NCBI GenBank assembly: GCA_963665815.1
Contig: OY762463.1
Location: 1,216,001 to 1,280,000, forward strand
Source of the DNA: Candidatus Cloacimonadales bacterium
GTDB taxonomy: Bacteria > Cloacimonadota > Cloacimonadia > Cloacimonadales > JAIOQZ01
Direction of reading: 5' to 3'
DNA length: 64,000 nucleotides
The notes under the pieces are model-generated. The model did not search any database. It saw nothing but the letters and a program-made list of their open reading frames with translations, and was not told where the DNA came from. Positions 9,638 to 62,037 of this stretch are shown piece after piece. Positions within the stretch are counted from its first letter, which is position 1; each line of letters opens with the position of its first letter. Position numbers and translations under genes: made by a program.

Positions 9638-9648
9638 GGAAGTAAATT

Positions 9649-10146: not shown

Positions 10147-10163
10147 GCTTATAAGAGGTTATA

Positions 10164-10469: not shown

Positions 10470-10510
10470 ACTGATGAGGAATTTTACCGATAATAAGGTA
10501 AGGAGTTAAT

Positions 10511-10822: not shown

Positions 10823-10870
10823 TAAACATAAATGATTTACTTAATTTTCCGGTAATCTGAGAAAGAGAAT

Positions 10871-12463: not shown

Positions 12464-12475
12464 ATTACCAATAAT

Positions 12476-13144: not shown

Positions 13145-13145
13145 A

Positions 13146-14459
13146 ATGTCTGTCCCAATTAACTTCTCAAAATATCATCAAATAATAGATAATGTGAATC
13201 CAATTAAGCAAAACGGTACTGTTTCACAAATTATCGGACTGATAGTAGAATCAATCGGACCTGCCGCCTCAATAGGAGATATCTGCTATATACACTCCAA
13301 TGATGGCAGAAAGCACATGACAGAGGTTGTAGGTTTCAAGAAAAACAAGACCTTGCTGATGCCCCTCAAAGAGCTATATGGTATTGCTCCCGGAAATCAG
13401 GTATCAACATTCAGAGAACCGTTTTCTGTTGCTACAGGGGATGAGCTTCTTGGAAGAGTGATCGATGGCCTGGGAAACCCTATAGACAGTGGTCCGGAAC
13501 TTAAACTGAAAGAACGTCGTTCCGTTTTCAGTCCTCCACCGAATCCACTTACAAGACAAAGGATAACTGAACCGCTTCAGCTCGGCATAAGATCAATTGA
13601 CGCATTGTTGACATGTGGAAAAGGTCAGAGAACAGGTATTTTTGCCGGCTCGGGTGTTGGTAAATCTGTTCTTCTCGGCATGATTGCCCGTAACACAAAA
13701 GCAGATATCAATGTTATTGCTCTGATTGGTGAGCGGGGACGTGAAGTAAGAGACTTTATTGAAAGCGATCTTGGAGAAGAAGGACTTAAACGATCAGTTG
13801 TTATTGTTGCAACATCAGATCAGGCTGCTCTTACAAGAGTCAAGGGAGCATTAGTAGCTACGACAATAGCCGAGTATTTCAGAGATAAAGGACTGAATGT
13901 TCTACTGATGATGGACTCCGTTACACGATATGCCATGGCACTAAGAGAAATAGGACTGGCAGTCGGTGAACCTCCAACAACAAAAGGATATACTCCATCT
14001 GTGTTTGCAAATCTCCCAAAACTGCTTGAGCGAGCTGGTACATCCGCAACAGGGACAATAACAGGGCTTTATACTGTGCTGGTAGAAGGTGGAGACATGG
14101 ATGAACCGATTGCCGATGCAGTACGTTCCATCCTTGACGGGCACATTCTGTTATCTCGTAAACTGGCATCAAAAGGACATTATCCGGCTGTAGAAATACT
14201 TGGATCAATATCTCGTGTGATGAATAGTGTCATTGAAAACGAACAGAAAACTGCAGCCCAGAAAATTATTGAGATAATGGCAACATATAAAGAAGCTGAA
14301 GATATCATCAATATTGGAGCATATTCATCAGGTTCCAACCCTAATATTGATTATGCTATTTCAAAAATAGAAAAAGTTAATAGATTTCTTAAGCAGCAGA
14401 TTGAAGAGAAGTCAGATTTTCAGACAACTCTTGATCAGCTAAAAGCAATAATAAAATAA
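13146..14459 (+). CDS. fliI: Flagellar export ATPase FliI
   Basis: FAGSGVGKS, IGERGREV, MDSVTRYAMA, GEPPTTKGYTPS, ILDGHI. Confidence 0.95.
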   Translation: MSVPINFSKYHQIIDNVNPIKQNGTVSQIIGLIVESIGPAASIGDICYIHSNDGRKHMTEVVGFKKNKTLLMPLKELYGIAPGNQVSTFREPFSVATGDELLGRVIDGLGNPIDSGPELKLKERRSVFSPPPNPLTRQRITEPLQLGIRSIDALLTCGKGQRTGIFAGSGVGKSVLLGMIARNTKADINVIALIGERGREVRDFIESDLGEEGLKRSVVIVATSDQAALTRVKGALVATTIAEYFRDKGLNVLLMMDSVTRYAMALREIGLAVGEPPTTKGYTPSVFANLPKLLERAGTSATGTITGLYTVLVEGGDMDEPIADAVRSILDGHILLSRKLASKGHYPAVEILGSISRVMNSVIENEQKTAAQKIIEIMATYKEAEDIINIGAYSSGSNPNIDYAISKIEKVNRFLKQQIEEKSDFQTTLDQLKAIIK

Positions 14460-45497: not shown

Positions 45498-45627
45498 GTT
45501 GTCTCCAAAGCATGTATATACAATGTTCAGTTAACTGATTTACTTTAGAAAAAAAGACAAATTTTCATAGACAAATATTGATAATCCCTCATAAATTGCA
45601 AAAATAATATCCACAGGATTTAATGGG

Positions 45628-46500
45628 ATGAAATCAAACTTAGCTGAAAAGCAGACAAAACTTGACGCACTGCTTGAAAACGTTAACAGTTCTTATATTT
45701 CTACAATAAAAAGTAACATCAGTAAAATATTCAGAGTATTCAGTGATCCTGATGCTACTGCAACCGAATTAAAAGATGTCATTGAGAATGACCCACCTCT
45801 GTATGCGAAAGTTCTAAAGTATGCGAATTCCGCATATTATGGTTCACGAAGAGAAATTTCAGAGATTAAGCAGGCAATAATCTGTCTTGGATTTAACACA
45901 GTAAAGGAGCTTGCATTAACCCAGAAAGTATGTTCTATCTTTGAAAAAGATGAGAAGAATGAAAATTTTTCACTATTAGATTTATGGAAACACAGTATCT
46001 CTGTAGCGATCTGTGGACGGTTGTTGTACAGGAGAGAATTCAGAGAAAAAAGTGATCTGATCTATACCGCAGGAATACTCCACGACATCGGAATAATCAT
46101 TGAGGATCAATTCCGTCATGACTTGTTCAATACTATTATTGAAGAAGCTAACAGAACAAATGAAGACACAATAGATATTGAAAACAGAATTTTAGGATTT
46201 AATCACTCAGAAATTGGTAGAGCTATAGCAGAAGACTGGGAATTCCCCACGGAATTATGCAATGCTATTGGGGCTCACCACTATTACAGTAACGAGTCCA
46301 GTTTGTTATGTAAAGTTCTCGCAATTTCCGAGTATATATGCCAGTCTGAGGACATAGGCTTCTGTGACACACCTTATATAGATGAAGAGCTTTATAATTC
46401 ATATGTCACAGAATTAGAAATAGAAAAAGAAGCTATAGAATTAATCAAAGAAAAACTCATGCTTGAGTTAAACAGAATGGAAGAACAGGGATGGTTCTAA
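45628..46500 (+). CDS. HDOD-domain protein
   Basis: DPPLYAKVLKYANSAYY, AIICLG, WKHS, AGILHDIG, GFNHSEIG, HH. Confidence 0.9.
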   Translation: MKSNLAEKQTKLDALLENVNSSYISTIKSNISKIFRVFSDPDATATELKDVIENDPPLYAKVLKYANSAYYGSRREISEIKQAIICLGFNTVKELALTQKVCSIFEKDEKNENFSLLDLWKHSISVAICGRLLYRREFREKSDLIYTAGILHDIGIIIEDQFRHDLFNTIIEEANRTNEDTIDIENRILGFNHSEIGRAIAEDWEFPTELCNAIGAHHYYSNESSLLCKVLAISEYICQSEDIGFCDTPYIDEELYNSYVTELEIEKEAIELIKEKLMLELNRMEEQGWF

Positions 46501-46503
46501 TTA

Positions 46504-47862
46504 ATGAATTCTGAGATTAAAAGAAAGAACAAACAGATCGAAGAGCTTAAAGAGCGAATAAAGTATCTGGAAATTGAAAACAGACATATAAAAAATGACT
46601 ATGCTCTTATGAAAGAAGATTATAGTCATGCTTCTGACAAGTACATGGAGATTCTACATGACTTTGAGAAATCAAACTCTGAGTTGCGACAGAAGAATAA
46701 TTTAATATCTGAACAGAATAAAGAGATTAAACAGAGGAATATCCAGAACAGCATTCAAAAAGAACAATTAGCAAGACAGAATAATTTCCTGCAAACTCTT
46801 TTGGACAGTATCCCTAATCCGGTATATTATAAGGATATGGATAACAGATATCTGGGCTGTAATGAAGCATTCTGTAAGTTAGTGAATCTCAGTTTTTCCG
46901 AAATTATCAGTCAGAACGAAATTGTTCAAAACTCAAACCTCTCTCATAAAGCCTTTGATGATTCTGCTCCTGACCTCCAATTAGGTAACTCCCCTAAACG
47001 ATTTGAATTTAAATTAACTTTGCAGGATGTAACAAGAAATATTGTTATCAACAAAGCTGTTTTCAAGGATATTAACAGGGAAAATGCAGGTTTAATAGCT
47101 GTAATTACAGATATAACCAAACTCAAAGAAATTGAAAACGAATTGAAAGAATCTCAGATTAAATTACAAAGAGCAATGAAGTCAAAAGACAAGTTTTTCT
47201 CAACAGTAACTCATGATCTGAAAAATCTTCTTACAATCCTATTTATGTCCTGTGATGCTATTGAAAACTCAGATCTTAATCTTAATCAGGAACAGCAGAC
47301 CAGAATTGTAAAAAAAGCAGCAAGAGGATTCAGGCAGTTCCACGAAACTCTGAATAATCTGCTTAACTGGGCAAAATCTCAAACCGGCCGTATTCCTTAT
47401 GAGCCGGAAACAATAGATCTCAAAAAAGTTACGGAAAATTGTGTATCTCTTCTGGAACCTTTTGTGAAAGAGAAATCAATCAATCTTATCACAGAAGTAG
47501 AAAATAGCTGTATAGCTTTTGCTGACAGGTCAATGCTTCATTCAGTACTTACAAACCTATTGACGAATGCTGTCAAATTTACTAACGCTGATGGAATTGT
47601 AAAGTTAGCAGCTCTTACTGAAGGTAACACTTGCATTATAACCGTTCAGGATAATGGTGTAGGTATGAGTAAAGATGACCAGGCAAGATTATTCAATATT
47701 GACGAAAACTTCACACGTAAAGGCACAAAGAATGAACCGGGAACAGGCCTCGGTCTGATTATATGTAAAGAATTTATCGAAATCAACAGGGGTTCTCTAC
47801 ATCTTAGTAGTGAACTAAATAAGGGAAGCACATTTGAAATACATTTACCTACAATAATTTAA
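46504..47862 (+). CDS. PAS-domain histidine kinase with N-terminal coiled coil
   Basis: LDSIPNPVYYKD, THDLKN, NLLTNAVKF, DNGVGM, GTGLGL. Confidence 0.9.
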   Translation: MNSEIKRKNKQIEELKERIKYLEIENRHIKNDYALMKEDYSHASDKYMEILHDFEKSNSELRQKNNLISEQNKEIKQRNIQNSIQKEQLARQNNFLQTLLDSIPNPVYYKDMDNRYLGCNEAFCKLVNLSFSEIISQNEIVQNSNLSHKAFDDSAPDLQLGNSPKRFEFKLTLQDVTRNIVINKAVFKDINRENAGLIAVITDITKLKEIENELKESQIKLQRAMKSKDKFFSTVTHDLKNLLTILFMSCDAIENSDLNLNQEQQTRIVKKAARGFRQFHETLNNLLNWAKSQTGRIPYEPETIDLKKVTENCVSLLEPFVKEKSINLITEVENSCIAFADRSMLHSVLTNLLTNAVKFTNADGIVKLAALTEGNTCIITVQDNGVGMSKDDQARLFNIDENFTRKGTKNEPGTGLGLIICKEFIEINRGSLHLSSELNKGSTFEIHLPTII

Positions 47863-47871
47863 GCAGGAATA

Positions 47872-49437
47872 ATGAGTATTGAAACCAGAATCAAGAATTT
47901 ACTGTTAAATCACAGGAAAAGCTATGCATCACTGGTAACAATGTACTTCTTACTGTTTTCAGTAGTCTCCTTTTCTATCTTAAGTATTGTATGGATAATC
48001 AGTGACTTCATTTCCCTGAAAAAAGATTTATTAAGATTCAAATCAGAATATATAGAAAATCAGAAGAAGCATGTCAAATTGCAGACAAATCATGCTGTAA
48101 GAATAATAGAGAACTTTAAAAACGATTATATCAAGAAAGCCGAAAACAATACTATCCATCATGCAATGACTCTTGATAAAATCTTCAGTACTATCGCTAA
48201 AAACAGAATTTCAAAAGGAAACAGACAGTTTCAGGTTCTATCTGAAGTGGCAAATGACTATGTCTCAAAAAAACCTCTGCTAAACATATCACTTTACCAG
48301 CCTGCATCCGGGAAGATTTACTCAAATTATCAAAATCAGAATCAGTCTCAAAGAAATAATCAATATATAAAGACTGTATTGGACAGCTTTCTCACAGACA
48401 ATGAAGACAGAATGAGCAAATCAATTGAGATCCCTATTGATCAACCGAAATCAAAAGAATTATTTTATGTTCTCTATAATTCCGATACATCAACATATAT
48501 TCTGATCAGCGAAATTCTATCCCACAGAAAACAGGAAGTTCAACAGGAAGTCCTCAAAGAAATCCAGAAAATCTCTTTTGATGAAAGTGGATATATCTTC
48601 GTTAACACATATGATGGAGATGCTCTGATTACTAATGGGAAGTTGAATAATACACAAGTCAATCTATGGAATCTTGTAGATTCAGATAACAATAAAGTAA
48701 TTCAGATGGAAAGAGAAGCTGCAGCAAAACCTGACGGAGATTTCATTCAATACACATGGAAAAAGCCTGGAGGAGAGAATCCTATACCGAAGATGTCATA
48801 CATCAAAGGTATTGATGACTGGGAATGGATGCTTGGTGCAGGTTTCTATCTCGATAATGTAAATGAAGTAGTAAAGAAACAGAGAAATGCAACAATTAAA
48901 TCAATTATCAGAGAAGTGATGATTGTTCTGATAGTTCTGTTATTGTTACTCTTGCTTATATTCTATTTTTCAAGATATCTGACAAAAATGACCAAAATAA
49001 ACTTCCAGATACTGAACAATTTTTTCCAGATTGCAGCTAAAGAAGCAACTTTAATAAACGAGGACATGCTTCATTTTTCTGAATTTAAAGATTTGGCCTC
49101 TGCAGTCAACTCCATGATTATTGAGAGACAACATTACGAACAGGAAAAAGCCGAGTTTGAAAGAAAATCATCAGCCCTGGCAATGGCAGTTACTGCCAGC
49201 CACGAGATTAATCAACCCTTGATGATTCTTTCCGGTAACATAGAACTGCTTCAATTATCTTTGAGAAACGAAAACCTGACACAAAAGCAAAGACAACATC
49301 TGGAAATGATTTACAAAGCGTTAGCAAGAATCCAGTCAATTCTAAGCATGTTCAAAGAATCTAATTCAGTAAGATTTGAGAACTACAGTGATGGTACCGA
49401 CATGGCTATTCTTGACAAAAGTAAAGAACTTCTTTAG
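47872..49437 (+). CDS. Membrane Cache-domain sensor with HisKA but no HATPase domain
   Basis: Two TM helices, GYIFV..YTWKKPG..WEWMLGAGFYLD (Cache_2-like), SHEINQPL; ends about 75 aa after the His. Confidence 0.8.
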   Translation: MSIETRIKNLLLNHRKSYASLVTMYFLLFSVVSFSILSIVWIISDFISLKKDLLRFKSEYIENQKKHVKLQTNHAVRIIENFKNDYIKKAENNTIHHAMTLDKIFSTIAKNRISKGNRQFQVLSEVANDYVSKKPLLNISLYQPASGKIYSNYQNQNQSQRNNQYIKTVLDSFLTDNEDRMSKSIEIPIDQPKSKELFYVLYNSDTSTYILISEILSHRKQEVQQEVLKEIQKISFDESGYIFVNTYDGDALITNGKLNNTQVNLWNLVDSDNNKVIQMEREAAAKPDGDFIQYTWKKPGGENPIPKMSYIKGIDDWEWMLGAGFYLDNVNEVVKKQRNATIKSIIREVMIVLIVLLLLLLLIFYFSRYLTKMTKINFQILNNFFQIAAKEATLINEDMLHFSEFKDLASAVNSMIIERQHYEQEKAEFERKSSALAMAVTASHEINQPLMILSGNIELLQLSLRNENLTQKQRQHLEMIYKALARIQSILSMFKESNSVRFENYSDGTDMAILDKSKELL

Positions 49438-49542: not shown

Positions 49543-49570
49543 TTGACAATATAAAGTATTAAATTATTAT
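49543..49570 (+). promoter_or_regulatory. Possible sigma70 promoter of the 49698-57032 operon
   Basis: TTGACA-16 nt-TATTAT, but the context is very AT-rich. Confidence 0.35.
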
Positions 49571-49697
49571 CTTAATATATTTTGTATAGATTTGTAATTA
49601 TTTGTCTTTAATAATATTGGCATTATATTTTTTTTGTCGTATAATATAATTAGTAATAATAAAGTGTTTCTAAAATCACATTTTCTGGGAGCAATAG

Positions 49698-52600
49698 ATG
49701 AAATATTTATCAATATTTACTTTGATTCTACTCTGTGCATCTTTTCTGAACTCTGCACCTCTCGAGATATTTGATTGTAATCCCGATACAACAGGAGTTG
49801 AAAATGTATCAACATTATCAAACATTACATTTCATATCAGGGATACAGATCCAAATGGTGGAGTAAATGAAAACTCCATAATAGTGCAAATTCAGGATGA
49901 GATTTATTCTCATACAAGTGCAAACAGCCAATACATCCACTTCATTCCTGTGAACGATCTGGAGTATTATATCGTTATTGACCCTGCAACAAACTTTGCA
50001 TATGGAGATACAGTAAGTGTATCTATTGATGCTTCAGATGTAAATGGTGTTCTGATGCCAACATTTGAATACAGCTACAGATGTATTGTCGATAACCTTC
50101 CACCATACTCTATCGCCAGTAATCCTACTGCAAGGCAACTGCAAGTACCTGTGGACACACCTATTCAGTTTCGTGTCAGAGATATGGAGATGGGGGTTGA
50201 TATTTCAACCGTAACTGCTACAGTAAGGTATCAGAATAACTCTGTTACTTATGGCAGTAATGATACTCAGAACTTTCAGTTCTCGGGAACTCTGGATAAC
50301 TTCCTCTGCCAAGTCAATATGCCGGATGCTTTTGATTTTGGTGATTCAGTTAATGTTGTAATTAATGCGGAAGACCTTGCTGGCAATCAAATGATTCCTT
50401 ATACATACTGGTTTATCTGTTTTATTGATAACGTCCCACCTTATACTGGGGAATACACTCCGGATATTAATTCAATTGACAATCCGGTAAATACAAATGT
50501 TTCATTTAATGTTTATGATCAACATTCAGGAATTGATTTAAATGAACTAAGAATTAAAATTAATGATAACTACTATACACATGTCAGTACTTCTGTAAGT
50601 GTCAATCCTTTGATTGGAGATAATGGCTATCAGGTTATTATCAATCCTATCAATAGCTTTGCCTTTAATGATCTGATTGATGTTACAATCTGGGCTAAAG
50701 ATACTCATGGCAATGAAATGGACTCTGTAGCCTATCAATTTCAGACAATAGCAGACGACACTCCACCTTATACAGGAGACTGGATTCCGGGCAATAACGC
50801 TCAAAACGTACCTTTGAGCACAAACATTCAATTCAACGTTTATGACCTTATTGCAGGCGTCAATCCGAACTCAGTTGTTGTAACAGTTAATAATGACACA
50901 ACTTATACTGTTACAAGCACAGGTGTAAGCTATGTCCAGATTCCAAACGGATATCGATTTACGATAAACCCAACAGTAAACTTTGATTATAACGAGCTTG
51001 TACAAATTGAAATTCAGGCAACGGATAATAACAATAACGTTATGATTCCTTATGATTATTCATTCAGAACAATTCCTGATTCCAATGATCCTCCTATCTT
51101 ACAGCTTCCTGACACATTCTTTGTTAATGAAGATGACAGTCTGGTTGTTGATTTCGATGTTTATACACATGACCCTGATGGGGATGCTCTTGTTATAACA
51201 GTTAACCAGACACCTGTTCATCCAAATATTAATGTCACAATTAATAATAATATGGTAACGTTCAAACCATCCTTCATGAACTGGATTGGTACTGAAAACG
51301 TTGGTTTTACAATTAATGATGGACGAGACAATACAACTGGAACTGTCAGTATTACTGTGCTTCCGGTTAATGACAGACCAGTCATAGTTCTTCCTGATGA
51401 ATTTGTGTTTAATGAAAATGATAATTATCAGATAAACTTCGCTCAATATATTCAAGATGTTGATAACAGCATTGGAGACTTTCAGTTGAACGCCAGCGGA
51501 AACTCAGATATTCATGTATCAATATCTAATACTGTTGTTACATTCTCTGCTGATCCTTACTGGTTTGGTCAGGAAGCGATCACTTTCACTGTATTTGACG
51601 ATGATACAAGGCTTAGTTCATCAGATACAGTACTTGTTAGAGTTGTAAATATTGTTGAAGAGCCTATGATTGATGGACCTTCAAGTATTACCCTTACAGA
51701 AGATACAGCTCAGACATTTGATTTTTCCTATTACATTACAAATAATGATAATATCCCTATAACCCTGACCCAGTCAAACGCTAATGAATTTACTGTAGAT
51801 GTTTCAATAAACGGATATCAGGTTACATTCACTCCGGCTGCCGATTATCAGGGAACAAGAACAATAAGATTTAACTTACTGGACAGCAACAGCAACATAC
51901 TTGATTATGATGATATTGATATTATCGTTACACCTGTTAATGATCCTGTAAGACTTAATCCTGCTTTCCAGAGCTATTTTGAGTTTACTCAAGGATCATC
52001 TCTGAATCTTGATTTCAGTAATCTTATTATGAATCCTGATGAGATTCCATATGAAATGGAACTCTCTGTTGCAGGAAACGAAAACATCATTGTTAATATC
52101 GACAGTCTTATGGTGAATATTTCTGCATCTGAAACTTGGTCTGGTCAGGAAAGGCTTACATTTACAATAGTCGGTGACGAAATAAACGGTACTGATCACT
52201 GGGAATTCGATAAAGAAATTGATATCAAAGTTATCACAACAGTTCAAATAAATCCGTCTTTCAATGATTACTTCACATTCACAGAAGGAACCACCTTCAG
52301 AACAAGTTTTGCCGGCATGGTTACAAATGCTGAGAACTATGCTCTGGAACTCACCTATACGGGAAATTCCTTTATTCAAGTTGATATTGATAGTCTGGAT
52401 GTTTCTTTCTCAGCCCCGGATAAATGGGTTGGAGAAGAGGATATCACATTCAAAATTGCAGGTACTGACCTGAACAGCAGAGCAGACTGGGAATTTGAAA
52501 AAGTAATAAGAATTACTGTTGAACCTGCAGCTGAGAATCTTGGTGAAAAAGTTGAACTACAATACAGGTCAATAACAAGAAATAATGGAAATCAATCCGA

Positions 52601-52826
52601 TATTTACATATATACAGAAGTTGACATTTCGAAGATAAAAGGTAAAATTCTTTCCAGAAGAGGAAAAGTCATTAAAGATTTGAACATTCAAACCCTTGGT
52701 GACAGAAAAGTAACAAACTGGAATACTACAGATAATGATAATAATCTTGTTGATGGTGGTTTCTATATCTACCAGTTCAAAATTGACGACAAGATTTATC
52801 AGGGTAGTATAATTGTAGTAAGGTAA
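49698..52826 (+). CDS. Large secreted repeat protein (4 SbsA/Big_5-like Ig repeats, about 5 cadherin/tandem-95-like repeats) with a type-B-like T9SS CTD
   Basis: Signal peptide; repeats DxxPPY...I.F.V.D...GV; NDPP/NDRP/NDPV repeats; C-terminus ITRNNGNQSD...ILSRRGKVI...WNTTD...GGFYIYQ...GSIIVVR. Confidence 0.75.
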   Translation: MKYLSIFTLILLCASFLNSAPLEIFDCNPDTTGVENVSTLSNITFHIRDTDPNGGVNENSIIVQIQDEIYSHTSANSQYIHFIPVNDLEYYIVIDPATNFAYGDTVSVSIDASDVNGVLMPTFEYSYRCIVDNLPPYSIASNPTARQLQVPVDTPIQFRVRDMEMGVDISTVTATVRYQNNSVTYGSNDTQNFQFSGTLDNFLCQVNMPDAFDFGDSVNVVINAEDLAGNQMIPYTYWFICFIDNVPPYTGEYTPDINSIDNPVNTNVSFNVYDQHSGIDLNELRIKINDNYYTHVSTSVSVNPLIGDNGYQVIINPINSFAFNDLIDVTIWAKDTHGNEMDSVAYQFQTIADDTPPYTGDWIPGNNAQNVPLSTNIQFNVYDLIAGVNPNSVVVTVNNDTTYTVTSTGVSYVQIPNGYRFTINPTVNFDYNELVQIEIQATDNNNNVMIPYDYSFRTIPDSNDPPILQLPDTFFVNEDDSLVVDFDVYTHDPDGDALVITVNQTPVHPNINVTINNNMVTFKPSFMNWIGTENVGFTINDGRDNTTGTVSITVLPVNDRPVIVLPDEFVFNENDNYQINFAQYIQDVDNSIGDFQLNASGNSDIHVSISNTVVTFSADPYWFGQEAITFTVFDDDTRLSSSDTVLVRVVNIVEEPMIDGPSSITLTEDTAQTFDFSYYITNNDNIPITLTQSNANEFTVDVSINGYQVTFTPAADYQGTRTIRFNLLDSNSNILDYDDIDIIVTPVNDPVRLNPAFQSYFEFTQGSSLNLDFSNLIMNPDEIPYEMELSVAGNENIIVNIDSLMVNISASETWSGQERLTFTIVGDEINGTDHWEFDKEIDIKVITTVQINPSFNDYFTFTEGTTFRTSFAGMVTNAENYALELTYTGNSFIQVDIDSLDVSFSAPDKWVGEEDITFKIAGTDLNSRADWEFEKVIRITVEPAAENLGEKVELQYRSITRNNGNQSDIYIYTEVDISKIKGKILSRRGKVIKDLNIQTLGDRKVTNWNTTDNDNNLVDGGFYIYQFKIDDKIYQGSIIVVR

Positions 52827-52830
52827 GGTT

Positions 52831-54291
52831 ATGAACATGAAAAATATACTCGTTTTAATACTACTTGTTTCCCTTTCACTTTTGTTCTCTCATGAATTCG
52901 GAGAGCACGGAGGAGTTCGTAATGCAGCAATGGGCGAAACCGGAATTTCTAACAGTACTGACGTTTCAGGTGCTCAATGGAATCCTGCATTAATCAGCAG
53001 CCTGAAACACTATCAGTTTGTCACTGACTTAAGACAATCCTCAGTCCAGTTAGATAATGATGATATTTACCATAACTTCCTTTTCCTCGGAATTCCTGTT
53101 GAGAATATTGGTACTTTCTCTGTCAGTGGAGGTCTTTTCAATTCTGATGAGTATGAGAATGCCGAATTAAGTTTGAATTACGGAAGAAGCCTTGGAGATA
53201 AATGGGCAGTTGGATTAACTGTTGTAAATTACTATGTAAACTACTCAGGAATATCTGAAACATCATCCGCTCTTGATCTTGGTCTGGGTGCACTTTATCA
53301 TCCTACCGAATATTTCACACTTGGTTTATCAACCAGAAATTTGCTTAGACCGGATGTTGCCGTAGACTCACGTAATGAAGACAAATTGCCTATGCTTGCT
53401 GGTTTAGGAGCAACTTTCCATGCTAACAATCTGATAATCACAACTGATTTTGAATATCAGGACATGCTGAATACAGATGATGAAATCAGGCTTGGACTTG
53501 GTGCGGAATACTCCATATATGATAACCTCGCAATTCGAACAGGTTTCAACAATAACTTCTTTACAGCCGGTTTCGGAGTAAAGATGTATACAAAAAACTG
53601 GTTTGCCAATCCTGACAGGACTAACGACCTGTATAACGTAAATACAGCTTCAATATCTCTTGATTATTCTGCAAGGTTCCCCATTTTCTTTAGTGGTGGA
53701 AATGACCTTATAAGCTTTGAAAATGAAGCTGAAACAGAATATGGAGATCACTTTATTGGGATTACGGTTGACTTTGGTACAGACACAGTTAACAAAGATC
53801 AGCTTGCATATTACTTCCCTGAAAAGTATGGAAGAAGATTCGGTGTTGCAGATACTGTTTTCATCGAAAAAGTTGTTAAAGACACAATCTATCAGGACAG
53901 AACAATAATTGATACTGTTGCTGTTTATGAAAAAATTGTGGATCAGGAGCTTTTACAGGAAAGACTGGAAGAACAACTTGAGATTGTAAAAGTAAAAGAA
54001 TATGACAGTATTAACAGAGCATCTGTTGATCACCTTGTTAATGCTTTACGTTACTACTACAATGCTGAATACAAGAAATCAATTGCAGAATGTGAAAAAT
54101 CAATTGATATCGCTCCTAGATTGTCATTGTCATACATTATTCTCGGATCCATATACTATAAAATGGGAGATAGTGAACTTGCATTTGACTACTGGGAAAA
54201 AGCAAAGAAAGTATATTCGAAAAATGAAGAATTAAATAAAGTTTTAGAAAACATTTATAATGGAATTGAAGATTTCATTCCACAATATTAG
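52831..54291 (+). CDS. PorV/PorP-SprF-like outer-membrane beta-barrel with C-terminal coiled coil and TPR
   Basis: Signal peptide, GVRNAAMG..D...WNPA, LDLGLG, RNLLRPD, LGAEY..LAIRTG; C-terminal TPR pair. Confidence 0.7.
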   Translation: MNMKNILVLILLVSLSLLFSHEFGEHGGVRNAAMGETGISNSTDVSGAQWNPALISSLKHYQFVTDLRQSSVQLDNDDIYHNFLFLGIPVENIGTFSVSGGLFNSDEYENAELSLNYGRSLGDKWAVGLTVVNYYVNYSGISETSSALDLGLGALYHPTEYFTLGLSTRNLLRPDVAVDSRNEDKLPMLAGLGATFHANNLIITTDFEYQDMLNTDDEIRLGLGAEYSIYDNLAIRTGFNNNFFTAGFGVKMYTKNWFANPDRTNDLYNVNTASISLDYSARFPIFFSGGNDLISFENEAETEYGDHFIGITVDFGTDTVNKDQLAYYFPEKYGRRFGVADTVFIEKVVKDTIYQDRTIIDTVAVYEKIVDQELLQERLEEQLEIVKVKEYDSINRASVDHLVNALRYYYNAEYKKSIAECEKSIDIAPRLSLSYIILGSIYYKMGDSELAFDYWEKAKKVYSKNEELNKVLENIYNGIEDFIPQY

Positions 54292-54305
54292 AAAAAGGAT
54301 TTAAC

Positions 54306-55691
54306 ATGAAAAGATCATTCATCATCGTTATGTTTTTGTTTTCCTTCGTTGTTCTGCTAGCCCAGAATTACGATACGGTATATCAGATTGATGCTGAAAA
54401 AAGCCTGGCAGAGCGTATCGAAAAGGTTATTGAACCGATTGCCGGTAAAACAGTCGTAATTGTTGATCTTGAATTAAGATATCCGCCAGAGGGACTTGTA
54501 CCGTTCGGAATGGAACTCGATAAAAAATCTAGTCTTCCGGGAATTCCCGTTGCAAAATCCAAGGGTGTTTTAACTCCAAACATTGCAGATCAACCTACAT
54601 TTCCTACGATTGTAACCAAAAAGAAGATCATAATTTATGCAGACCAGAATCTTTCAGCAGACAGGGAAGCATATATTGCAGAAAATGTTGCCAAATGGTT
54701 TGCTCTTAATCTTCTTGAAAACGATGTTTTAGAGATTCGAAAAGAGTTAGATCTTACAGGTAGCTCAAAAGGGAACTTTTTTACTTCCCCTATCTTCTAT
54801 TTCATTATATTCCTGCTATTGTTGATAGTCTTCTTTGTTATTGCCCTGTTCCATGTAAACAGAATGGCAGAATCAATGAGACATGTTAATATTACAGGTA
54901 TCGACAGTCTTATCAGAATTATGAGTTCAATGCAGACAAAATTTGAGACAATGAGTAACGCTGTTTCAGGACTGGACTATTCTTCCAAGGAACCATTACC
55001 TATACAGGTTATGGAAAAACGTGAAGATGTATACGACGAATCTATGGACTTCCACTTCATTGAAAAACTTTCAATGCCGGAATTTGTCCATCTTATAAAA
55101 GATGAAACTGCAGACAGTGCAGCATTTATCTTGTCTAATCTTTCTACGAATTTTGCCAGAAACTTCTTCCAGGAATACCTTGGCAATTCTGCTGAGATAA
55201 TCAAACACATGACAACCTCAGTAAAACAATCCAAGAAAGATGTTCAGGAACTGAGAGCTAAACTCTATGACCGATTCAAACTTATTGTTGAAGAAAGTCA
55301 GGTTAGATTTGAAGGAGCATCAACTCTTATCAAGGTTACTAATTCACTTCCTACCGGATACAGTTCAGACTTCTATAAACTCATCCAGAAAGCTGATGGA
55401 AAAGCAGCATCTGACATCAGAGATAAAGTGTTCCTGCTTGAAGATGTTGAAAAACTGGATGATAATGTAATTGATCAGATAATTAAGCAATCAGATCATA
55501 ACCTGTTAGTCAAATTCCTTCTCAGTGTAGATGAAAGTCTTCTTCAAAAATTCTTCCAGAATATGTCTGAAAGAAATATCCTGATTGTCAAAGAGGATAT
55601 GGAAGTACTTGGACCTCTATCTTCCGATGACAAAGAAAAGACTAAGAACAGCATGTTAGCAATGATCAGATCAATGCTCAAATACAAATAA
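54306..55691 (+). CDS. Chimeric rotor-like protein: signal peptide, FliF-RBM3-like domain, one TM helix, FliG middle and C-terminal domains
   Basis: FliG-C: AASDIRDKVFLLEDVEKLDD..KFFQNMSER..KEDMEVLGPL. FliG-M: FHFIEKL..LIKDETADSAAFILSNL. N-terminal part resembles RBM3 of the FliF in this window. Confidence 0.75.
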   Translation: MKRSFIIVMFLFSFVVLLAQNYDTVYQIDAEKSLAERIEKVIEPIAGKTVVIVDLELRYPPEGLVPFGMELDKKSSLPGIPVAKSKGVLTPNIADQPTFPTIVTKKKIIIYADQNLSADREAYIAENVAKWFALNLLENDVLEIRKELDLTGSSKGNFFTSPIFYFIIFLLLLIVFFVIALFHVNRMAESMRHVNITGIDSLIRIMSSMQTKFETMSNAVSGLDYSSKEPLPIQVMEKREDVYDESMDFHFIEKLSMPEFVHLIKDETADSAAFILSNLSTNFARNFFQEYLGNSAEIIKHMTTSVKQSKKDVQELRAKLYDRFKLIVEESQVRFEGASTLIKVTNSLPTGYSSDFYKLIQKADGKAASDIRDKVFLLEDVEKLDDNVIDQIIKQSDHNLLVKFLLSVDESLLQKFFQNMSERNILIVKEDMEVLGPLSSDDKEKTKNSMLAMIRSMLKYK

Positions 55692-55701
55692 GGAAAATGT
55701 T

Positions 55702-56439
55702 ATGAAGATTAGCACAATATTAGGTATCATAATCGGGTTTGGAATAATCTTATATGCAGTATATCTTGAAGACGCAATCCAGTATTTTCTGAATCCTCAG
55801 GCAATATTGATTGTTGGCGTTGGAACATTTGCAGCTGTACTGATTTCATTTTCCTCAAGTGCAATCATAGATGCAATCTTTGCATTCTTCGCTATTTTTA
55901 CAAGCTCAGGACTTTCACCCAAAAAAGTCATTGAGATTATTGTGAATCTCGGAAAAGAAGCAAGAACAAACAGCTATGAAAGCCTTTTACTCAGTAGACA
56001 TGTCAAGAATCTTGGAATGCTTGAAAGAGGAATAAGATTACTAAATGAAGATGTTACATCTGATAAAATTGAAACTATCCTCACCAGAGAAAGTAAAGCA
56101 CTATCAGACAGAAACAGAACGGCTGAAAGAGTCTTCAGACTTGCCAGTACATTCTCACCACTATTTGGTATGATCGGAACTGTTATCGGGATGGTTATAA
56201 TGATTAATAAATCATCCAATCCGGATGATCTTCCCAAAGCAATGGGAATAGCTCTGTTATCCACTCTTTACGGACTTATCCTGTCTGGTCTTGTTTTCAA
56301 ACCTATTGCAAGTAAGATTAGAGATAATAACCATACTAATAACAAAGTTAACGACATTATCATCGAAGGTGTTCTGTCAATTCAGAATGGCGAGAATTCT
56401 CAGCTTACAAAAGAAAAACTTGAAACATATTTACATTAG
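55702..56439 (+). CDS. motA: Stator protein MotA/PomA family
   Basis: Four TM helices, AILIVGVGT, EAR, SPLFGMIGTVIG, ALLSTLYG, PIASKI, EGVLSIQNGEN. Confidence 0.88.
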   Translation: MKISTILGIIIGFGIILYAVYLEDAIQYFLNPQAILIVGVGTFAAVLISFSSSAIIDAIFAFFAIFTSSGLSPKKVIEIIVNLGKEARTNSYESLLLSRHVKNLGMLERGIRLLNEDVTSDKIETILTRESKALSDRNRTAERVFRLASTFSPLFGMIGTVIGMVIMINKSSNPDDLPKAMGIALLSTLYGLILSGLVFKPIASKIRDNNHTNNKVNDIIIEGVLSIQNGENSQLTKEKLETYLH

Positions 56440-56447
56440 AGTTTATC

Positions 56448-57032
56448 ATGAGTAATAAAGTAATAAATTTTAAGGGAATTAAAAGATTTACTCAGCAGGA
56501 TACGACTGATGAGGAAAATTGGGTTGATGTAATGGTTTCCTTTGCAAGCCTGATGCTGATTCTTGTTGTATTTTACATGTTCTTTCAATCATATCAAAAA
56601 TTATATGATGAGGGGAAAATTGAAAATGCTGTATATTCTCAAGATTCCACTCGATATGTTTTTACTTTGAAGAATGCCGAATATTTCAAGAGTTACAGCA
56701 GTTCTTTTACCGCAAATGCCGAAACAGATCTGATTCAACTTGGAAAGATGCTTAATTCAAAGATTGAAAATCAAAAAAGAAAATGGCAGATCAGAATTGA
56801 AGGACATACTGATGATATTCCGTTCAGTGACAGTAATTATTCTTCAAACCTGGATCTGAGTGCTGCAAGAGCATCGGCTATTGCGAATTTCTTTATTTCA
56901 AAAGGTTATTTTCATCCGGATCAGCTTCAAGTAGCAGGATATGGAGACTTAAAACCTATGGTACCAAATGTAAGTGATGAGAACAGAATATCAAATAGAA
57001 GAGTAAATATTATTTTGTATAAAGTACATTAA
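56448..57032 (+). CDS. motB: Short MotB-like stator protein with OmpA-type peptidoglycan-binding domain; canonical Asp absent
   Basis: TM WVDVMVSFASLMLILVVF; IEGHTDDIP, SNLDLSAARA, GYGDLKP, NRRVNI. Confidence 0.8.
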   Translation: MSNKVINFKGIKRFTQQDTTDEENWVDVMVSFASLMLILVVFYMFFQSYQKLYDEGKIENAVYSQDSTRYVFTLKNAEYFKSYSSSFTANAETDLIQLGKMLNSKIENQKRKWQIRIEGHTDDIPFSDSNYSSNLDLSAARASAIANFFISKGYFHPDQLQVAGYGDLKPMVPNVSDENRISNRRVNIILYKVH

Positions 57033-57052
57033 TATACAATCTTAAACATATG

Positions 57053-57085
57053 AGACCTGTTGTTTTACAATGGGTCTTTTTTTTT
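57053..57085 (+). terminator. Intrinsic terminator closing the 49698-57032 operon
   Basis: AGACCTGTTGT-ttt-ACAATGGGTCT followed by a T-run. Confidence 0.7.
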
Positions 57086-57306: not shown

Positions 57307-60300
57307 ATGCGAAGACAATTAATATTAGCTTTATTGCTTTTATTCGCAGTTTCCATTTTTGCACAGACCTCAGGAGGTCCTGACGCTTACGGATACTCAT
57401 GGATTAACAGTAATGATGCTAATGGTCCTTCTTTCACCTGGATCACTCCGGATACAGTGAACGCAACACAAGTAACTACTTTCACGGACGATTCAATGGT
57501 AGGTCCATTCACAATTGGTTTTAACTTTCCATTTTACGATCAAACAAAGACAGACTTTTATTTAAGTTCAAACGGATTTATTTCCTTTACAGGAGACACA
57601 AACAGTCTCACAAACTACACAATCCCTACACCAGGCATCCCTAATGACTTTATTGCATGGTTCTGGGATGACATGGACCCTGTAAGCACTACAGCCCCAG
57701 CTAACAATGCTCGTGTTTATTACGAAAATATAACTTACAGTGGTACTAACGCGCTTCTAATCACATACCTGAATTATCATGAATACTCAGGAGAAGGAAC
57801 AGGATACGTTGATGCACAAGTTATCCTGAGAGACAATGGTCAAATCATCATGCAATACGATTCATTCAATGGTGGTATTGTTTTAAACGAAGCTACAATT
57901 GGCATCGAAAACTCTGATGGAACTATCGGTCTTGAATACTGCTTTGATGACTCAACATTAATTTCAAATCAACTTGCCATAAAATATTACACAATTGAAG
58001 ATGGCTATCCTGAATTTGCACAAAACCCTAATCCAGCCTCAGGATCAACAGGTATTCTCGTTAATGGAACATTAACATGGGATTTCGGTGCAGATACTGA
58101 TACTTATGATTTATGGTTCGGACCTGCAGGAAATATGACTCAGGTTGTAACCGGTGCCACAGCAGGAGCTACAGGCTCATACACATATAGTGGACTTAAT
58201 ACTCTTTCCAGCTACGAATGGAGAGTCGATACTCATAATACTGCTGTTAGACTTTCTACAATCGGAGCAGTATGGACTTTCGAAACTCAGTGTGGTACAA
58301 TTACTACATTCCCATGGAGTGAAGATTTTGAAGGAGCACAGCTTCCTTCATGCTGGGTAGAAGATATTAATAACATTACTCCATGGTCTTTTGGTACATC
58401 TACTCCATCCTCTCCTACCGGTCCTTCATCTGGAGACCATACAAGTGGTTCAGGATATTTCATGTATACAGAAGCATCTGGAAGCCTCAATCAAGTTTTC
58501 AAAGTGACATCCCCAATATTTGATGCATCTGCTTTAACATCACCAGTTCTTGAATTCTGGTATCATATGTACGGGCAATCAATGGGAACTCTTCAAGTTA
58601 ACATTTTAGAACCGGCTACCGCTACATTACACTCAGATGTTATTACTCCTGTATCAGGAGATCAGGGAGATGTATGGAACAACGCAAGTGTAGATTTAAC
58701 ACCTTACACAGGTGAATTCCAGATTGAATTCATCGGAACAACAGGAGATGACTACTACAGTGACATCTGTATTGATGATGTAGGTATTTATGATAATGTT
58801 ACAACACCTGCATGTAACGCACTGAATACACCGGCTGATATGGCTATTGACATTATTGAAGCTGGAACACTGACTTGGAGTGGATCACAAGGTGCAACAG
58901 GCTATAAAGTTTCTCTTGGTACAGATAACCCTCCAACAAACATCGAAGATGGTCTTGATGTTGGAGCAGCTTTTTCTTATGACTTCTCAGGATTAACTTT
59001 CGGAACAACTTACTACTGGATGGTAACTCCTTACAATACAAACGGTGAATCTACAGGATGTCCTGTAAGATCATTCACTGTAAGAGCTGATCCAACCATA
59101 TCTACTTTCCCATGGACTGAAGATTTCAGCGTATGGCCACTACAAGACTGGGTTTTTGCAGGATCAAGACTGTGGGCAGAAGATTCAGGATCAGGATCTG
59201 CTTACTGTAATTTCTGGGGTTGGAGCGATGGTGAAGCTCATATGGTTACTCCTCCAATAGCCCTCCCTGCTACAGGTTCTTACAGCTTTGGTTTCAACTG
59301 GTCTCACTTATACAGCACTACATATCCTACAGACTCAGCGGCAGTATTAGTTTCTACTGATGGAGTTAACTGGAACATGGAATGGACTCTTGGTGGAACT
59401 AACTTCGATTCAAACGATGGAGCTGCGAACACTGCTCCAGGTACATTTACTTATGCTGAATTCAATCTTGACAGTTATCTTGGACAAACGATATACATTG
59501 ATGTAGTAGGTTACACAGGCTATGGTCCTAACTTCTACGTTGATAATGCTACTGTTTTCAGCGTTTCAACACCTCCTGGATGCTCAACAGCTGATACTCC
59601 TGCTGATGGTGCTAATGAAATTATCGAAATGGGCACACTCAGATGGAATACTACTGGAGGAACAACCGGTTATAAACTCTTCTTTGGGTCAGATAACCCA
59701 CCTACAAACATTGAAAATGGAACAGATCTTGGTAACGTGCAAACTTACGACTTCTCAGGACTTGCATTCAATACTACTTACTACTGGACTGTAGTACCTT
59801 ATAACACTAATGGTGATGCTACAGGATGCCCTGTATGGTCATTCACAACAAGACCTGATCCAACAGTTACTAACTTCCCATGGACAGAAGATTTCTCATC
59901 ATTCCCACTTGAGCCACGTGGCTGGAGCTATGGTGGTACTCAGCAATGGGCTGAAGATGCAGGTTCAGGAAGTATATTCGCAAACTTCTGGAGCTGGAGC
60001 ACTGGTAATGCTGAATTATACTCACCACCAATCGCATTAACAGGAAACGCAGACCTTCTTTTCAAATGGTCACACACATTCAATACTTCATATCCGGATG
60101 ATGCTTTTGAAGTGTCAGTATCAACAGATCAATCAAACTGGACTGTTGTATGGTCAATTCAGGATTCTCTGTTTGAATCTAATGATGGTGCTCAAAGTAC
60201 AGCTCCTGGTACTTTTGTTCAGGAAACCGTAAATATTGATGCATATAGTGGTCAGACAATCTATCTTAAGTTTGATGGTATTTCAGGATACGGTCCTAAC

Positions 60301-62037
60301 CTATACCTTGATGATGTTGGAGTTAATATTACAACACCACCAGACGATGATCTTACAGTTATTACAGTTATTGGTAACACAACTCCAATGGTTGGATCAC
60401 CTTCAGATTATACAATTTCCGTAAGAAATAATGGTCTTAACACACAATCAACTTATGATGTAAAACTTATGCTTGCTCCTGATACCGAACTCGGAACTAT
60501 TGCAGGTACTACAATTGCACATGATCAGATTAATGATTATGTTATCACCTGGATTCCTCAAGCAGGAATGGAAGGAAATCAGAATATCTTCGGTAAAGTT
60601 GTTCTTGCCGGTGACGAAGGTCCTGGTAATGATGCTTCTGCACCACTTCCAGTCAACGTTCAAGCATCACAAACAGGTATTCAGGGCTATGTACGTGACA
60701 TTAACGGCAACCCACTGTTTAACGCTCAAGTACTGATTGAAGAACTCCAGTCTGTTCAATATACAGGTAATAATGGATTCTATCAATTCCTTAATGTTCC
60801 TGTTGAAACATATACAGTAACTGCAAGTTTGACAAATTATGATAACAATACACAAACTAATGTCGTAGTAACTCAGGACAACCTTACTGACGTAAACTTC
60901 ACAATGACTCAGGGTGCAATCCTCATGGGTACTGTTTACGATCATGCTAATGTTGAAGTTGCCGGAGCTCTTGTTGAAATCGAACAACTTGCTATTACAA
61001 CAACAACAGATGCACAAGGTAACTACACATTTGTACAGGTTACACCGGGAACATATACTGTTAATGCAACTAAAGATGGTTATATTGATCAAACTGAATC
61101 TAACGTAGTTATAGCTGCGGATGCAACTGTTGATCTTGATATTATTCTTAACGAATATGGTCATTTCACAGTTAATATAACAACAAACCTCAGTTCACCA
61201 ACCGGTGCAATTGTTGAACTTACTGACGGAACAAACACATATACTGAAACATCAGATGATACCGGTGTTGTTCTTCTCAACGAGGTTCTTCCGGGAACAT
61301 ACAATCTTACAGCTTCACTTCCGGACTGTAACATTCACGAACAACAGAATATTGTTATTGTAAATGGTGACAATACTCCTGTTGATGTTACTCTTGATGA
61401 AATCCTTATTGCTCCAACAAACATTCAATGGCTTAACAATGATCGTATTCTTGTTTGGCAGCATGGTGACAGAATTTATGGAACCAGAGCAGATGGTGAA
61501 ACAGCACTTGTTGAAGGATCATCTTATGTTGAAAGAGATTCTGATAATGAAGAAGACGAACGTGCATTCATGTATTTCAGAGTTGAAATTGATATTATTA
61601 ATCAAACAACATCAGATACATTCTTCACAGTGACAGGATTTAACATTGGAGAACAACTTACTGCTACAATCACAGCAGTATATGAAACAGGTACCGCAGC
61701 AGCTCCAGATTTTGATTTCACATTTGAAGAAGTTGCAAACGATCCTGATGATGTAAATCTTGTTACAGAACTTAAAGGTAACTATCCTAACCCATTCAAT
61801 CCTACTACACACATTGAATTCTCACTTAAGAAAGCCGGAAACGTAGAACTTGCTATCTACAATATCAACGGACAGAAAGTAAGAACACTTGTAAGTGAAG
61901 AAATGGAAGCAGATAACCATAAGGTTACCTGGAATGGTAAAGATGACAGAGGAAACTCAGTTTCAAGTGGAACATATTTCTACAGACTGCAAACCTCTGA
62001 AACAACACAAACTAAGAAAATGCTGATGCTGAAGTAA
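57307..62037 (+). CDS. Large secreted multidomain protein (nidogen-like, Fn3, MAM, 2x Fn3+jelly-roll, CARDB-like, 3x carboxypeptidase-regulatory-like) with type-A/FlgD-Ig CTD
   Basis: Signal peptide; GGPDAYGY, IAWFWDD; MAM TGPSSGDHTSGSGYFMYTEAS..FWYHMYG; C-terminal NYPNPFNP..IYNINGQKV..WNGKD..SSGTYFY..TKKMLMLK. Confidence 0.85.
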   Translation: MRRQLILALLLLFAVSIFAQTSGGPDAYGYSWINSNDANGPSFTWITPDTVNATQVTTFTDDSMVGPFTIGFNFPFYDQTKTDFYLSSNGFISFTGDTNSLTNYTIPTPGIPNDFIAWFWDDMDPVSTTAPANNARVYYENITYSGTNALLITYLNYHEYSGEGTGYVDAQVILRDNGQIIMQYDSFNGGIVLNEATIGIENSDGTIGLEYCFDDSTLISNQLAIKYYTIEDGYPEFAQNPNPASGSTGILVNGTLTWDFGADTDTYDLWFGPAGNMTQVVTGATAGATGSYTYSGLNTLSSYEWRVDTHNTAVRLSTIGAVWTFETQCGTITTFPWSEDFEGAQLPSCWVEDINNITPWSFGTSTPSSPTGPSSGDHTSGSGYFMYTEASGSLNQVFKVTSPIFDASALTSPVLEFWYHMYGQSMGTLQVNILEPATATLHSDVITPVSGDQGDVWNNASVDLTPYTGEFQIEFIGTTGDDYYSDICIDDVGIYDNVTTPACNALNTPADMAIDIIEAGTLTWSGSQGATGYKVSLGTDNPPTNIEDGLDVGAAFSYDFSGLTFGTTYYWMVTPYNTNGESTGCPVRSFTVRADPTISTFPWTEDFSVWPLQDWVFAGSRLWAEDSGSGSAYCNFWGWSDGEAHMVTPPIALPATGSYSFGFNWSHLYSTTYPTDSAAVLVSTDGVNWNMEWTLGGTNFDSNDGAANTAPGTFTYAEFNLDSYLGQTIYIDVVGYTGYGPNFYVDNATVFSVSTPPGCSTADTPADGANEIIEMGTLRWNTTGGTTGYKLFFGSDNPPTNIENGTDLGNVQTYDFSGLAFNTTYYWTVVPYNTNGDATGCPVWSFTTRPDPTVTNFPWTEDFSSFPLEPRGWSYGGTQQWAEDAGSGSIFANFWSWSTGNAELYSPPIALTGNADLLFKWSHTFNTSYPDDAFEVSVSTDQSNWTVVWSIQDSLFESNDGAQSTAPGTFVQETVNIDAYSGQTIYLKFDGISGYGPNLYLDDVGVNITTPPDDDLTVITVIGNTTPMVGSPSDYTISVRNNGLNTQSTYDVKLMLAPDTELGTIAGTTIAHDQINDYVITWIPQAGMEGNQNIFGKVVLAGDEGPGNDASAPLPVNVQASQTGIQGYVRDINGNPLFNAQVLIEELQSVQYTGNNGFYQFLNVPVETYTVTASLTNYDNNTQTNVVVTQDNLTDVNFTMTQGAILMGTVYDHANVEVAGALVEIEQLAITTTTDAQGNYTFVQVTPGTYTVNATKDGYIDQTESNVVIAADATVDLDIILNEYGHFTVNITTNLSSPTGAIVELTDGTNTYTETSDDTGVVLLNEVLPGTYNLTASLPDCNIHEQQNIVIVNGDNTPVDVTLDEILIAPTNIQWLNNDRILVWQHGDRIYGTRADGETALVEGSSYVERDSDNEEDERAFMYFRVEIDIINQTTSDTFFTVTGFNIGEQLTATITAVYETGTAAAPDFDFTFEEVANDPDDVNLVTELKGNYPNPFNPTTHIEFSLKKAGNVELAIYNINGQKVRTLVSEEMEADNHKVTWNGKDDRGNSVSSGTYFYRLQTSETTQTKKMLMLK
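58801..60336 (+). repeat. Tandem intragenic duplication of about 256 aa (Fn3 + jelly-roll module)
   Basis: TPAD..GTL.W..GYK..G.DNPPTNIE.G.D.G..YDFSGL..DPT..FPWTEDFS..SNDGA..TAPGTF..GYGPN occurs twice. Confidence 0.8.

Follow-up and report, generated by a model that had tools for sequence, protein, structure and literature searches.

A five-gene operon in a 64,000-nucleotide stretch of contig OY762463.1 from a Candidatus Cloacimonadales bacterium (hereafter, the window) looks like an undescribed ion-driven envelope machine. It encodes, in order, a surface protein with immunoglobulin (Ig) and cadherin repeats (the adhesin), an outer-membrane β-barrel protein that bears a tetratricopeptide repeat (TPR) domain (the barrel–TPR protein), a chimera that joins a FliF-like periplasmic domain to the middle and C-terminal domains of FliG (FliG M+C), and homologues of the stator proteins MotA and MotB. 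The operon is probably a self-contained machine that works without a flagellum, takes its core from the flagellar motor and acts through the TPR and the barrel on the surface protein. FliG and MotAB are—to our knowledge—known to work together only in flagella. An earlier note on this DNA, made from the sequence alone, had suggested that the combination was new as a system, and a literature search that left subscription journals and supplementary files outside its scope found no FliF–FliG/MotAB unit described outside flagella. Taken as a whole, the interpretation in that note is partly supported.

The five genes are co-oriented, separated by gaps of 4, 14, 10 and 8 nucleotides and followed by a terminator-like hairpin, and no rod, hook, filament, export or switch genes lie within the unit. 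This arrangement and the list of parts, the FliF-like periplasmic domain included, stand as first described from the sequence. Between two species of the genus, each of the five genes has a dN/dS of 0.028–0.042 (at a dS of 0.9–2.0, which is near saturation), a pattern that indicates strong purifying selection on all five within the genus. The possibility that the operon is a decaying remnant was rejected on these ratios, which round to 0.03–0.04.

A conserved and selected FliG–MotAB pair in bacteria without the other flagellar genes searched for would show the torque core serving another purpose, and would offer a simple system for the study of stator and rotor, with one rotor protein and neither a switch nor an export gate. 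It has a bearing, too, on the origin of the flagellar motor. One tentative reading is that the module is a surviving sister of the ancestral motor core that predates, or stands apart from, the type III export apparatus. The version found in Cloacimonadota gives a clue to the output of the motor, in that a TPR–barrel fusion is encoded next to a protein with a type IX secretion system (T9SS) tag.

A FliG-type chimera and its predicted stator pair

The chimera comprises a signal peptide (residues 1–20), a periplasmic domain (22–150), a transmembrane helix (162–186), a disordered stretch (187–243) and FliG M+C (248–458). The identity of this last part, which had been read from the sequence, is confirmed by several comparisons. 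Pfam FliG_C scores 68.8 bits against a cut-off of 23.3 and matches all 19 members of the family; residues 248–458 align with residues 109–320 of Aquifex FliG; and positions 97–320 of TIGR00207 are matched at 85.5 bits (equivalog cut-off, 226.7). An AlphaFold2 model made with 19 homologues has a mean predicted local distance difference test (pLDDT) score of 73.5, rising to around 90 over the FliG part, and consists of an N-terminal signal helix, an alpha–beta periplasmic domain and a helical C-terminal half. The C-terminal half matches FliG M+C (8umx_B) in Foldseek (E = 1.4e-9) and in VIA (Z = 14.6). Pfam FliG_M matches 7 of the 19 chimeras, though both the fold and the alignment span the middle domain.

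Residues expected of a torque-generating FliG are retained: all 19 chimeras keep the torque-helix arginine (R423) and the acidic pair (E430 and D431). By contrast, the middle-domain motif EHPQ occurs in none of them (the window chimera reads ETAD at this position), whereas it is present in Aquifex FliG and in the FliG of the host genome itself. We take EHPQ(R) to be the FliM-binding site of the middle domain, and losing it is in keeping with a unit that lacks switch genes. There is no FliG_N region in the chimera; the periplasmic domain, the transmembrane helix and the disordered linker precede the middle domain instead.

In the model, the periplasmic domain resembles the ring-building RBM3/collar domain of FliF (RBM, ring-building motif). 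Foldseek pairs it with the RBM3/S-ring part of FliF (8z4g_1; E = 9.5e-5; target template modelling score, 0.53), and VIA aligns model residues 17–151 with residues 228–438 of Salmonella FliF, the RBM3/collar region, at Z = 12.6–12.9 and with a root mean square deviation of 1.9–2.8 Å over 93–100 residues. For the same domain, VIA gives lower Z values with SpoIIIAG (10.0), PrgK (8.8) and EscJ (8.2). Distant proteins of the same architecture carry a recognizable YscJ_FliF_C domain before FliG_M/C (P0044, P0132, P0146, P0049, P0068 and P0103), and the N-terminal domain of the window chimera matches the first four of these. The periplasmic part is short, with around 130 residues in a single RBM-like fold, and the chimera has no match to RBM1/RBM2 (Pfam YscJ_FliF).

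The operon MotA aligns over its full length (residues 1–242) with Vibrio PomA (8brd; 118 bits), and the NCBIfam PomA/MotP models also match it from end to end at around 152 bits, which is below their equivalog cut-offs of 341–394. It keeps the equivalent of PomA R88 and both conserved prolines; across 20 operon MotAs, the R88-equivalent is basic in 17 (arginine in 14 and lysine in 3). In MotB, the OmpA domain scores 60.4 bits with Pfam and aligns with the C-terminal domains of MotB, MotS and PomB. Pfam MotB_plug does not match the operon MotB but does match the flagellar MotB of the host. A ‘PYADLM’ motif is present in the transmembrane segment of 18 of the 20 aligned operon MotBs, and its aspartate aligns with the channel aspartate of Bacillus subtilis MotB and of PomB. 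By homology, MotA and MotB are shown as a predicted ion-driven stator of the PomAB 5:2 type, anchored to peptidoglycan.

The likeness to the flagellar motor core (the FliF MS-ring, FliG and MotA5B2 or PomA5B2) extends from FliG M+C, with its torque-helix residues, to a putative RBM3-like domain followed by a transmembrane helix, a full-length, four-transmembrane MotA of the PomA type and a MotB with one transmembrane helix and an OmpA-like domain. There are also differences. Here, FliF-like and FliG parts form one polypeptide that lacks RBM1/RBM2, FliG_N and EHPQ; an export gate, rod, hook, filament and FliM/N are all missing from the unit; an outer-membrane barrel–TPR protein and a surface protein with a predicted C-terminal sorting domain are the partners instead; and, in this genus, the channel aspartate of MotB is a serine.

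Gene linkage, the surface protein and a possible output

We surveyed 232 Cloacimonadota species genomes, the families of which are labelled here f1, f3, f6, f12, f14, f15 and f17. A search with the chimera at E ≤ 1e-5 matched 75 genomes; the chimera itself was counted when its N-terminal domain was covered or when E ≤ 1e-35, and the match rows were read by eye. On this basis, 49 genomes carry the chimera (3 in f1, 9 in f6, 34 in f12, 1 in f15 and 2 in f17), 20 have a canonical FliG only and 6, all in f14, have a longer relative. Beyond the phylum, the ESM Atlas clusters nearest to the chimera come from Cloacimonadota, Elusimicrobiota, Bdellovibrionota, Bacteroidota and Thermodesulfobacteriota, with FliG_C, FliG_M and YscJ_FliF_C all present in the Elusimicrobiota cluster. 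When representative clusters were searched with the chimera, 34 matched at E ≤ 1e-30 and 166 matched at E ≤ 1e-10.

Gene order was compared at 20 loci, hand-picked among the top matches so that five families were represented, and not a random sample. Chimera, motA and motB are contiguous at every one of them (21 copies). Homologues of the adhesin and of the barrel are each present at 16 loci, and the complete co-oriented five-gene order is found at 12. Elsewhere the arrangement varies: at three f6 loci the adhesin–barrel pair is divergent from chimera–motAB, at one locus the adhesin lies downstream of motB and another locus ends at the barrel. Three loci have neither adhesin nor barrel, and at two of these (L050 and L055) a TPR/YfiO-like protein of 371–419 amino acids follows motB. 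Locus L050 (L050:8001-16487, genome G144) holds two tandem copies of chimera–motA–motB with a TPR/YfiO-like protein after each.

The barrel–TPR protein was found in 41 of the 232 genomes, after the exclusion of six further barrel-only matches in short open reading frames as plain PorV paralogues, and 38 of the 41 also carry the chimera; the three that do not are 72–86% complete. In the 38 genomes with both, the two genes abut in 26 and lie within 7 kb and divergent in 9; the remaining 3 have the barrel gene on a separate contig or a fragmented assembly. The proposal that the two upstream genes occur together with the motor genes, in an order conserved in other genomes, is upheld by these counts.

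A different version of the operon is known from two loci of f14 (L060:4643-9897 of G208 and L061:6926-12219 of G204), a family represented by six complete genomes of 1.5–1.6 Mb in which neither FlhA nor SprA_N (0 of 6) was detected. This version encodes a chimera-like protein of 664–676 amino acids, a protein of 381–408 amino acids, a TPR protein of 220–227 amino acids, MotA and MotB, and its 408-amino-acid protein is not detectably PorV-like. The TPR of the window barrel is homologous to the separate f14 TPR protein (hhalign probability 95.9%, E = 5.8e-9), and a separate, lipoprotein-like TPR protein is also encoded at L050 and L055. Judged from these homologies, the TPR is the putative constant partner of the motor module.

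The model of the barrel–TPR protein (pLDDT 72.7; predicted template modelling score, 0.60) has a barrel at around residues 60–321, a low-confidence linker at 335–394 and a TPR domain at 396–476, the last of which is also matched by profile at residues 395–470. The top Foldseek matches of the barrel, 8gl6_F (E = 1.3e-10) and 6h3i_F, are chains of solved T9SS translocon complexes, with FadL close behind. Its profile scores are mostly below the curated thresholds: 73.5 bits (E = 2.1e-20) with NCBIfam PorV_fam (NF033709), for which the cut-off is 90; 22.3 bits with Pfam PorP_SprF, exactly at the cut-off of 22.3; and 28.6, 27.1 and 22.2 bits with the PorV equivalog, PorQ and TIGR03519 PorP models (cut-offs 250, 220 and 90.55, respectively). 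The linker is a ‘DTV..EKV..DT’ repeat. In a homologue at another locus (L039:4053-5987), the ‘VDTVFVEKVRVDTLIKEVTVFDTVTIVEKEIEER’ linker is expanded several-fold and the protein has 645 amino acids rather than about 480, which suggests a periplasmic tether of variable length.

The adhesin contains Big_5, Big_9 and Cadherin_4/5 domains. Across 13 homologues, roughly the final 85 residues are conserved, and the passenger that precedes them varies in length from around 630 to 2,040 residues. Taken one by one, the 13 C-termini match CHU_C in 11 cases, the PorU C-terminal region in 9, TIGR04183 (type A) in 7 and TIGR04131 (type B) in 3; the C-terminus of the window protein has sub-threshold matches to FlgD_ig (E = 0.008) and CHU_C (E = 0.025). 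The earlier note had described this C-terminal domain as type-B-like. Its assignment as a T9SS-type sorting domain holds across the homologues, but type B is not clear from the counts and the window copy is weak, so we describe it as a predicted T9SS-type domain and not clearly type B. With its conserved C-terminal domain on a varying passenger, and its gene beside that of the barrel at 16 of 20 loci, the adhesin fits the pattern of a cargo–receptor pair.

From these parts we propose the following mechanism. By homology, the predicted counterpart of the stator's cytoplasmic face is the C-terminal FliG domain of the chimera, which crosses the membrane once. The chimera would assemble into a membrane ring and be turned or pushed by the stator. 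The TPR, a module specific to the family, would dock on the chimera and carry the output to the outer membrane. In the version described here, the TPR would be tied by the repeat linker to a PorV-like barrel, and the barrel would hold the Ig/cadherin-repeat protein encoded upstream by its T9SS-type C-terminal domain. The machine could either move or rotate the surface protein or energize its delivery, anchoring or release. The fusion of the TPR to a PorV-like barrel beside a T9SS-tagged protein makes the proposal that a motor acts on a surface protein directly testable.

Several observations weigh against the proposal of a self-contained machine of this kind. The unit contains no rod or other shaft by which torque would pass across the peptidoglycan. 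Pfam YscJ_FliF_C matches 0 of the 19 Cloacimonadota chimeras, and a comparison of the chimera with the host’s own FliF by hhalign was not significant (probability 1.5%, E = 0.033), so that the link to FliF in this clade rests on the model with a mean pLDDT of 73.5 and on transitive matches. The equivalent of PomA E96 is not conserved across the 20 operon MotAs. In the window MotB, a serine (Ser36, in ‘SFASLM’) occupies the position of the channel aspartate (PomB D24; Escherichia coli MotB D32). The congener likewise has serine, a third f1 genome (G121) has asparagine, and all 18 other aligned operon MotBs keep aspartate; the three altered loci (the window, L038 and L010) are in f1, which is a flagellated family. 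An aspartate seven residues upstream of Ser36 is retained. With serine at the channel position, ion conduction by the stator of this genus may depart from the canonical mode, and the substitution lowers our confidence that the window copy is a canonical ion-driven stator. Eleven of the 49 chimera carriers have no match to the barrel–TPR protein, some having a separate TPR lipoprotein instead, which makes the adhesin module exchangeable. The stretch is contained in three sequencing runs from one study, none of which is RNA.

As to the output, one possibility that we put forward tentatively is a stand-alone rotary engine, in which a chimera ring spun by MotAB drives rotation or lateral transport of the T9SS-tagged adhesin through the TPR and linker tail of the barrel; if this were true, bacteria without flagella would have a new form of surface motility or of adhesin actuation. 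A close analogy is with the Bacteroidota, in which T9SS and gliding involve the GldLM motor, the SprA translocon, the PorV shuttle and the adhesin SprB with its PorP-family barrel SprF. As in that system, a predicted ion-driven motor pair of the 5:2 type is encoded beside a protein with a predicted T9SS-type C-terminal domain and an adjoining gene for a candidate barrel of the PorV/PorP superfamily, and SprA homologues are present in Cloacimonadota. Unlike that system, the motor here is MotAB with a FliG-type partner, GldL and GldM being undetected in the host in a search that had no positive control; and the barrel bears a TPR, which PorV and SprF lack, and falls under the cut-offs of the curated PorV, PorQ and TIGR03519 PorP models.

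It is also possible, although we doubt it, that the operon is a dedicated energizer of secretion or anchoring that produces no movement, with ion-motive force driving the export, attachment or release of the sorting-domain protein through the PorV-like barrel. This would be a sub-case of the self-contained envelope machine with a different output, and would parallel PorLM/GldLM or SiiAB with SiiE. The predicted sorting domain of the adhesin and the structural matches of the barrel to chains of T9SS translocon complexes agree with it, as does the occurrence of SprA_N in the host and in 205 of the 232 genomes. GldL (TIGR03513), GldM (TIGR03517) and GldM_1st (PF12081) had no match in the host genome, which is in line with it as well, but the control genomes gave nothing over the cut-off either, so the absence of GldL and GldM is not established. 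A precedent is SiiAB, reportedly a MotAB-like proton channel of the type I secretion system of Salmonella SPI4, which secretes the giant adhesin SiiE (bioRxiv 10.1101/641415). There too a large Ig-repeat adhesin has a MotAB-like pair encoded alongside it and linked to it in function, but SiiAB serves a type I secretion system and is not known to have a FliG-like or FliF-like partner or a PorV-like barrel. Against an energizer, SprA_N is found in 89 of the 98 genomes of f3, a family without the operon, which argues that T9SS in the phylum is not generally driven by the operon; and a FliG torque domain with an RBM3-like ring domain points to a rotor, which would be superfluous in a simple energy transducer. 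A paper on the evolution of MotAB (PMC12505986) separates flagellar from generic stators and, in part of its text at least, does not mention a FliF–FliG-type partner.

A transducer of the Tol–Pal or TonB kind, serving outer-membrane maintenance or uptake through a FadL-like barrel with the Ig-repeat protein as a mere neighbour, is improbable. FadL/TodX and PorV match the barrel about equally well, Tol–Pal clusters include a TPR protein (CpoB/YbgF) and the adhesin is missing in some carriers; but NCBIfam groups the barrel with PorV/PorQ, the FliG-type torque residues are conserved, and adhesin and barrel show the cargo–receptor pattern.

Distribution and relation to the flagellum

The host is flagellated, and flgB, flgC, fliF, fliH and fliI lie within the same window at 9209–14459, around 35 kb upstream of the operon and separated from it by glycosidase, efflux-pump and sensor-kinase genes. 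The statement that the unit is free of rod, hook, filament, export and switch genes is therefore true of the unit, though not of the window; the earlier note makes no mention of this flagellar cluster. The host has its own canonical parts: FliF (window 10871–12463), a FliG with N, M and C domains, and a flgE–motA–motB–fliL–fliM cluster. Identity to the resident FliG is 24% for the M+C part of the chimera, and the operon and flagellar MotA proteins of the host share 29% identity. In an IQ-TREE tree of FliG M+C (146 rows), obtained by a quick maximum-likelihood search (a careful search is unfinished), chimeras of the Cloacimonadota type fall on one side of a branch with 97% support in the Shimodaira–Hasegawa-like approximate likelihood ratio test, and the FliG of the host is nested within the canonical FliGs. 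An origin of the chimera by recent duplication of the host fliG was rejected on the basis of the 24% identity and of the placement of the two proteins on separate sides of the tree.

FlhA (FHIPEP) occurs in 24 of the 232 genomes and in only 3 of the 49 chimera carriers: the host, its congener and G121. The other 46 carriers have no FlhA, and the same genomes have no canonical FliG match. No FlhA was found among the 12 genomes of f6 or the 62 of f12, and both families include single-contig genomes that are 96–100% complete. Flagellar genes in five genomes are reported in one paper on Cloacimonadota genomes.

Given the separate canonical FliF, FliG and MotAB of the host and the 46 of 49 carriers without FlhA, the unit is not a flagellar part: by these comparisons it is neither the flagellar rotor or stator of the host nor a recent copy of either. 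The earlier proposal of independence from a flagellum agrees with this distribution, and the contrary case that it had raised, in which the chimera and MotAB would occur only as the sole fliG and motAB of a flagellar regulon, fails. That the operon is an alternative rotor–stator set or a leftover that works only within the flagellum is highly improbable and already largely refuted by the distribution: the flagellar genes of the window, the lack of fliG at its usual place between fliF and fliH and the loss of the channel aspartate from f1 MotB would fit it, but most carriers have no FlhA and no match to a canonical FliG, the host has a complete FliG and a flagellar motAB cluster elsewhere, the five genes are under strong purifying selection and the chimera has neither FliG_N nor EHPQ.

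The flagellar cluster of the window has the order flgB, flgC, a gap, fliF, fliH and fliI, so that fliF and fliH stand without a fliG between them. The host's canonical fliG is 1.9 Mb away (genome C1:3189903-3190943), beside a prolyl oligopeptidase gene. Directly after it is an open reading frame of 168 amino acids (L062:4958-5464; genome C1:3190957-3191463) with FliG_C (82 bits) followed by a partial FliG_M, which we read as a candidate small, circularly arranged FliG-like protein.

The operon in the window

Positions of the operon features are given in Table 1. The terminator-like site has a 12-pair stem at 57052–57078, followed by a T-run, and is the best-scoring such site of the region. The promoter candidates are consensus matches only, and the sigma-70 consensus may not be that of Cloacimonadota; promoter-like sites overall number 48, compared with 36.3 (s.d. 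6.2) in shuffled sequences, and are not clearly in excess.

Table 1 Features of the five-gene operon, with positions counted from the first nucleotide of the window
Feature	Position	Strand	Description
Promoter candidate, sigma-70-like	49543–49570	+	11 of 12 consensus positions
Promoter candidate, sigma-70-like	49617–49645	+	11 of 12 consensus positions
Adhesin gene	49698–52826	+	1,042 amino acids; Ig/cadherin-repeat surface protein with signal peptide (predicted secreted)
Adhesin C-terminal T9SS-type sorting domain	52560–52823	+	Around 88 residues; predicted from conservation in 13 homologues
Barrel–TPR gene	52831–54291	+	486 amino acids; PorV/FadL-like outer-membrane β-barrel, linker, TPR
Chimera gene	54306–55691	+	461 amino acids; FliF (RBM3-like)–transmembrane helix–FliG (M+C)
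motA	55702–56439	+	245 amino acids; PomA/MotP-type stator subunit
motB	56448–57032	+	194 amino acids; one transmembrane helix and OmpA-like peptidoglycan-binding domain
Intrinsic-terminator-like hairpin and T-run	57052–57085	+	Pattern match, after motB

Directly upstream of the operon (window 43533–49437) are four signalling genes, which encode a CckA-like hybrid kinase, an HDOD protein, a PAS kinase and a double-Cache kinase. The double-Cache kinase has a weak PorY-like match (33 bits) and occupies the same position only in the congener. Downstream, after an intergenic region of its own, a gene at window 57307–62037 encodes a protein of 1,576 amino acids with MAM and CarboxypepD_reg repeats, which carries a clear type A T9SS sorting domain.

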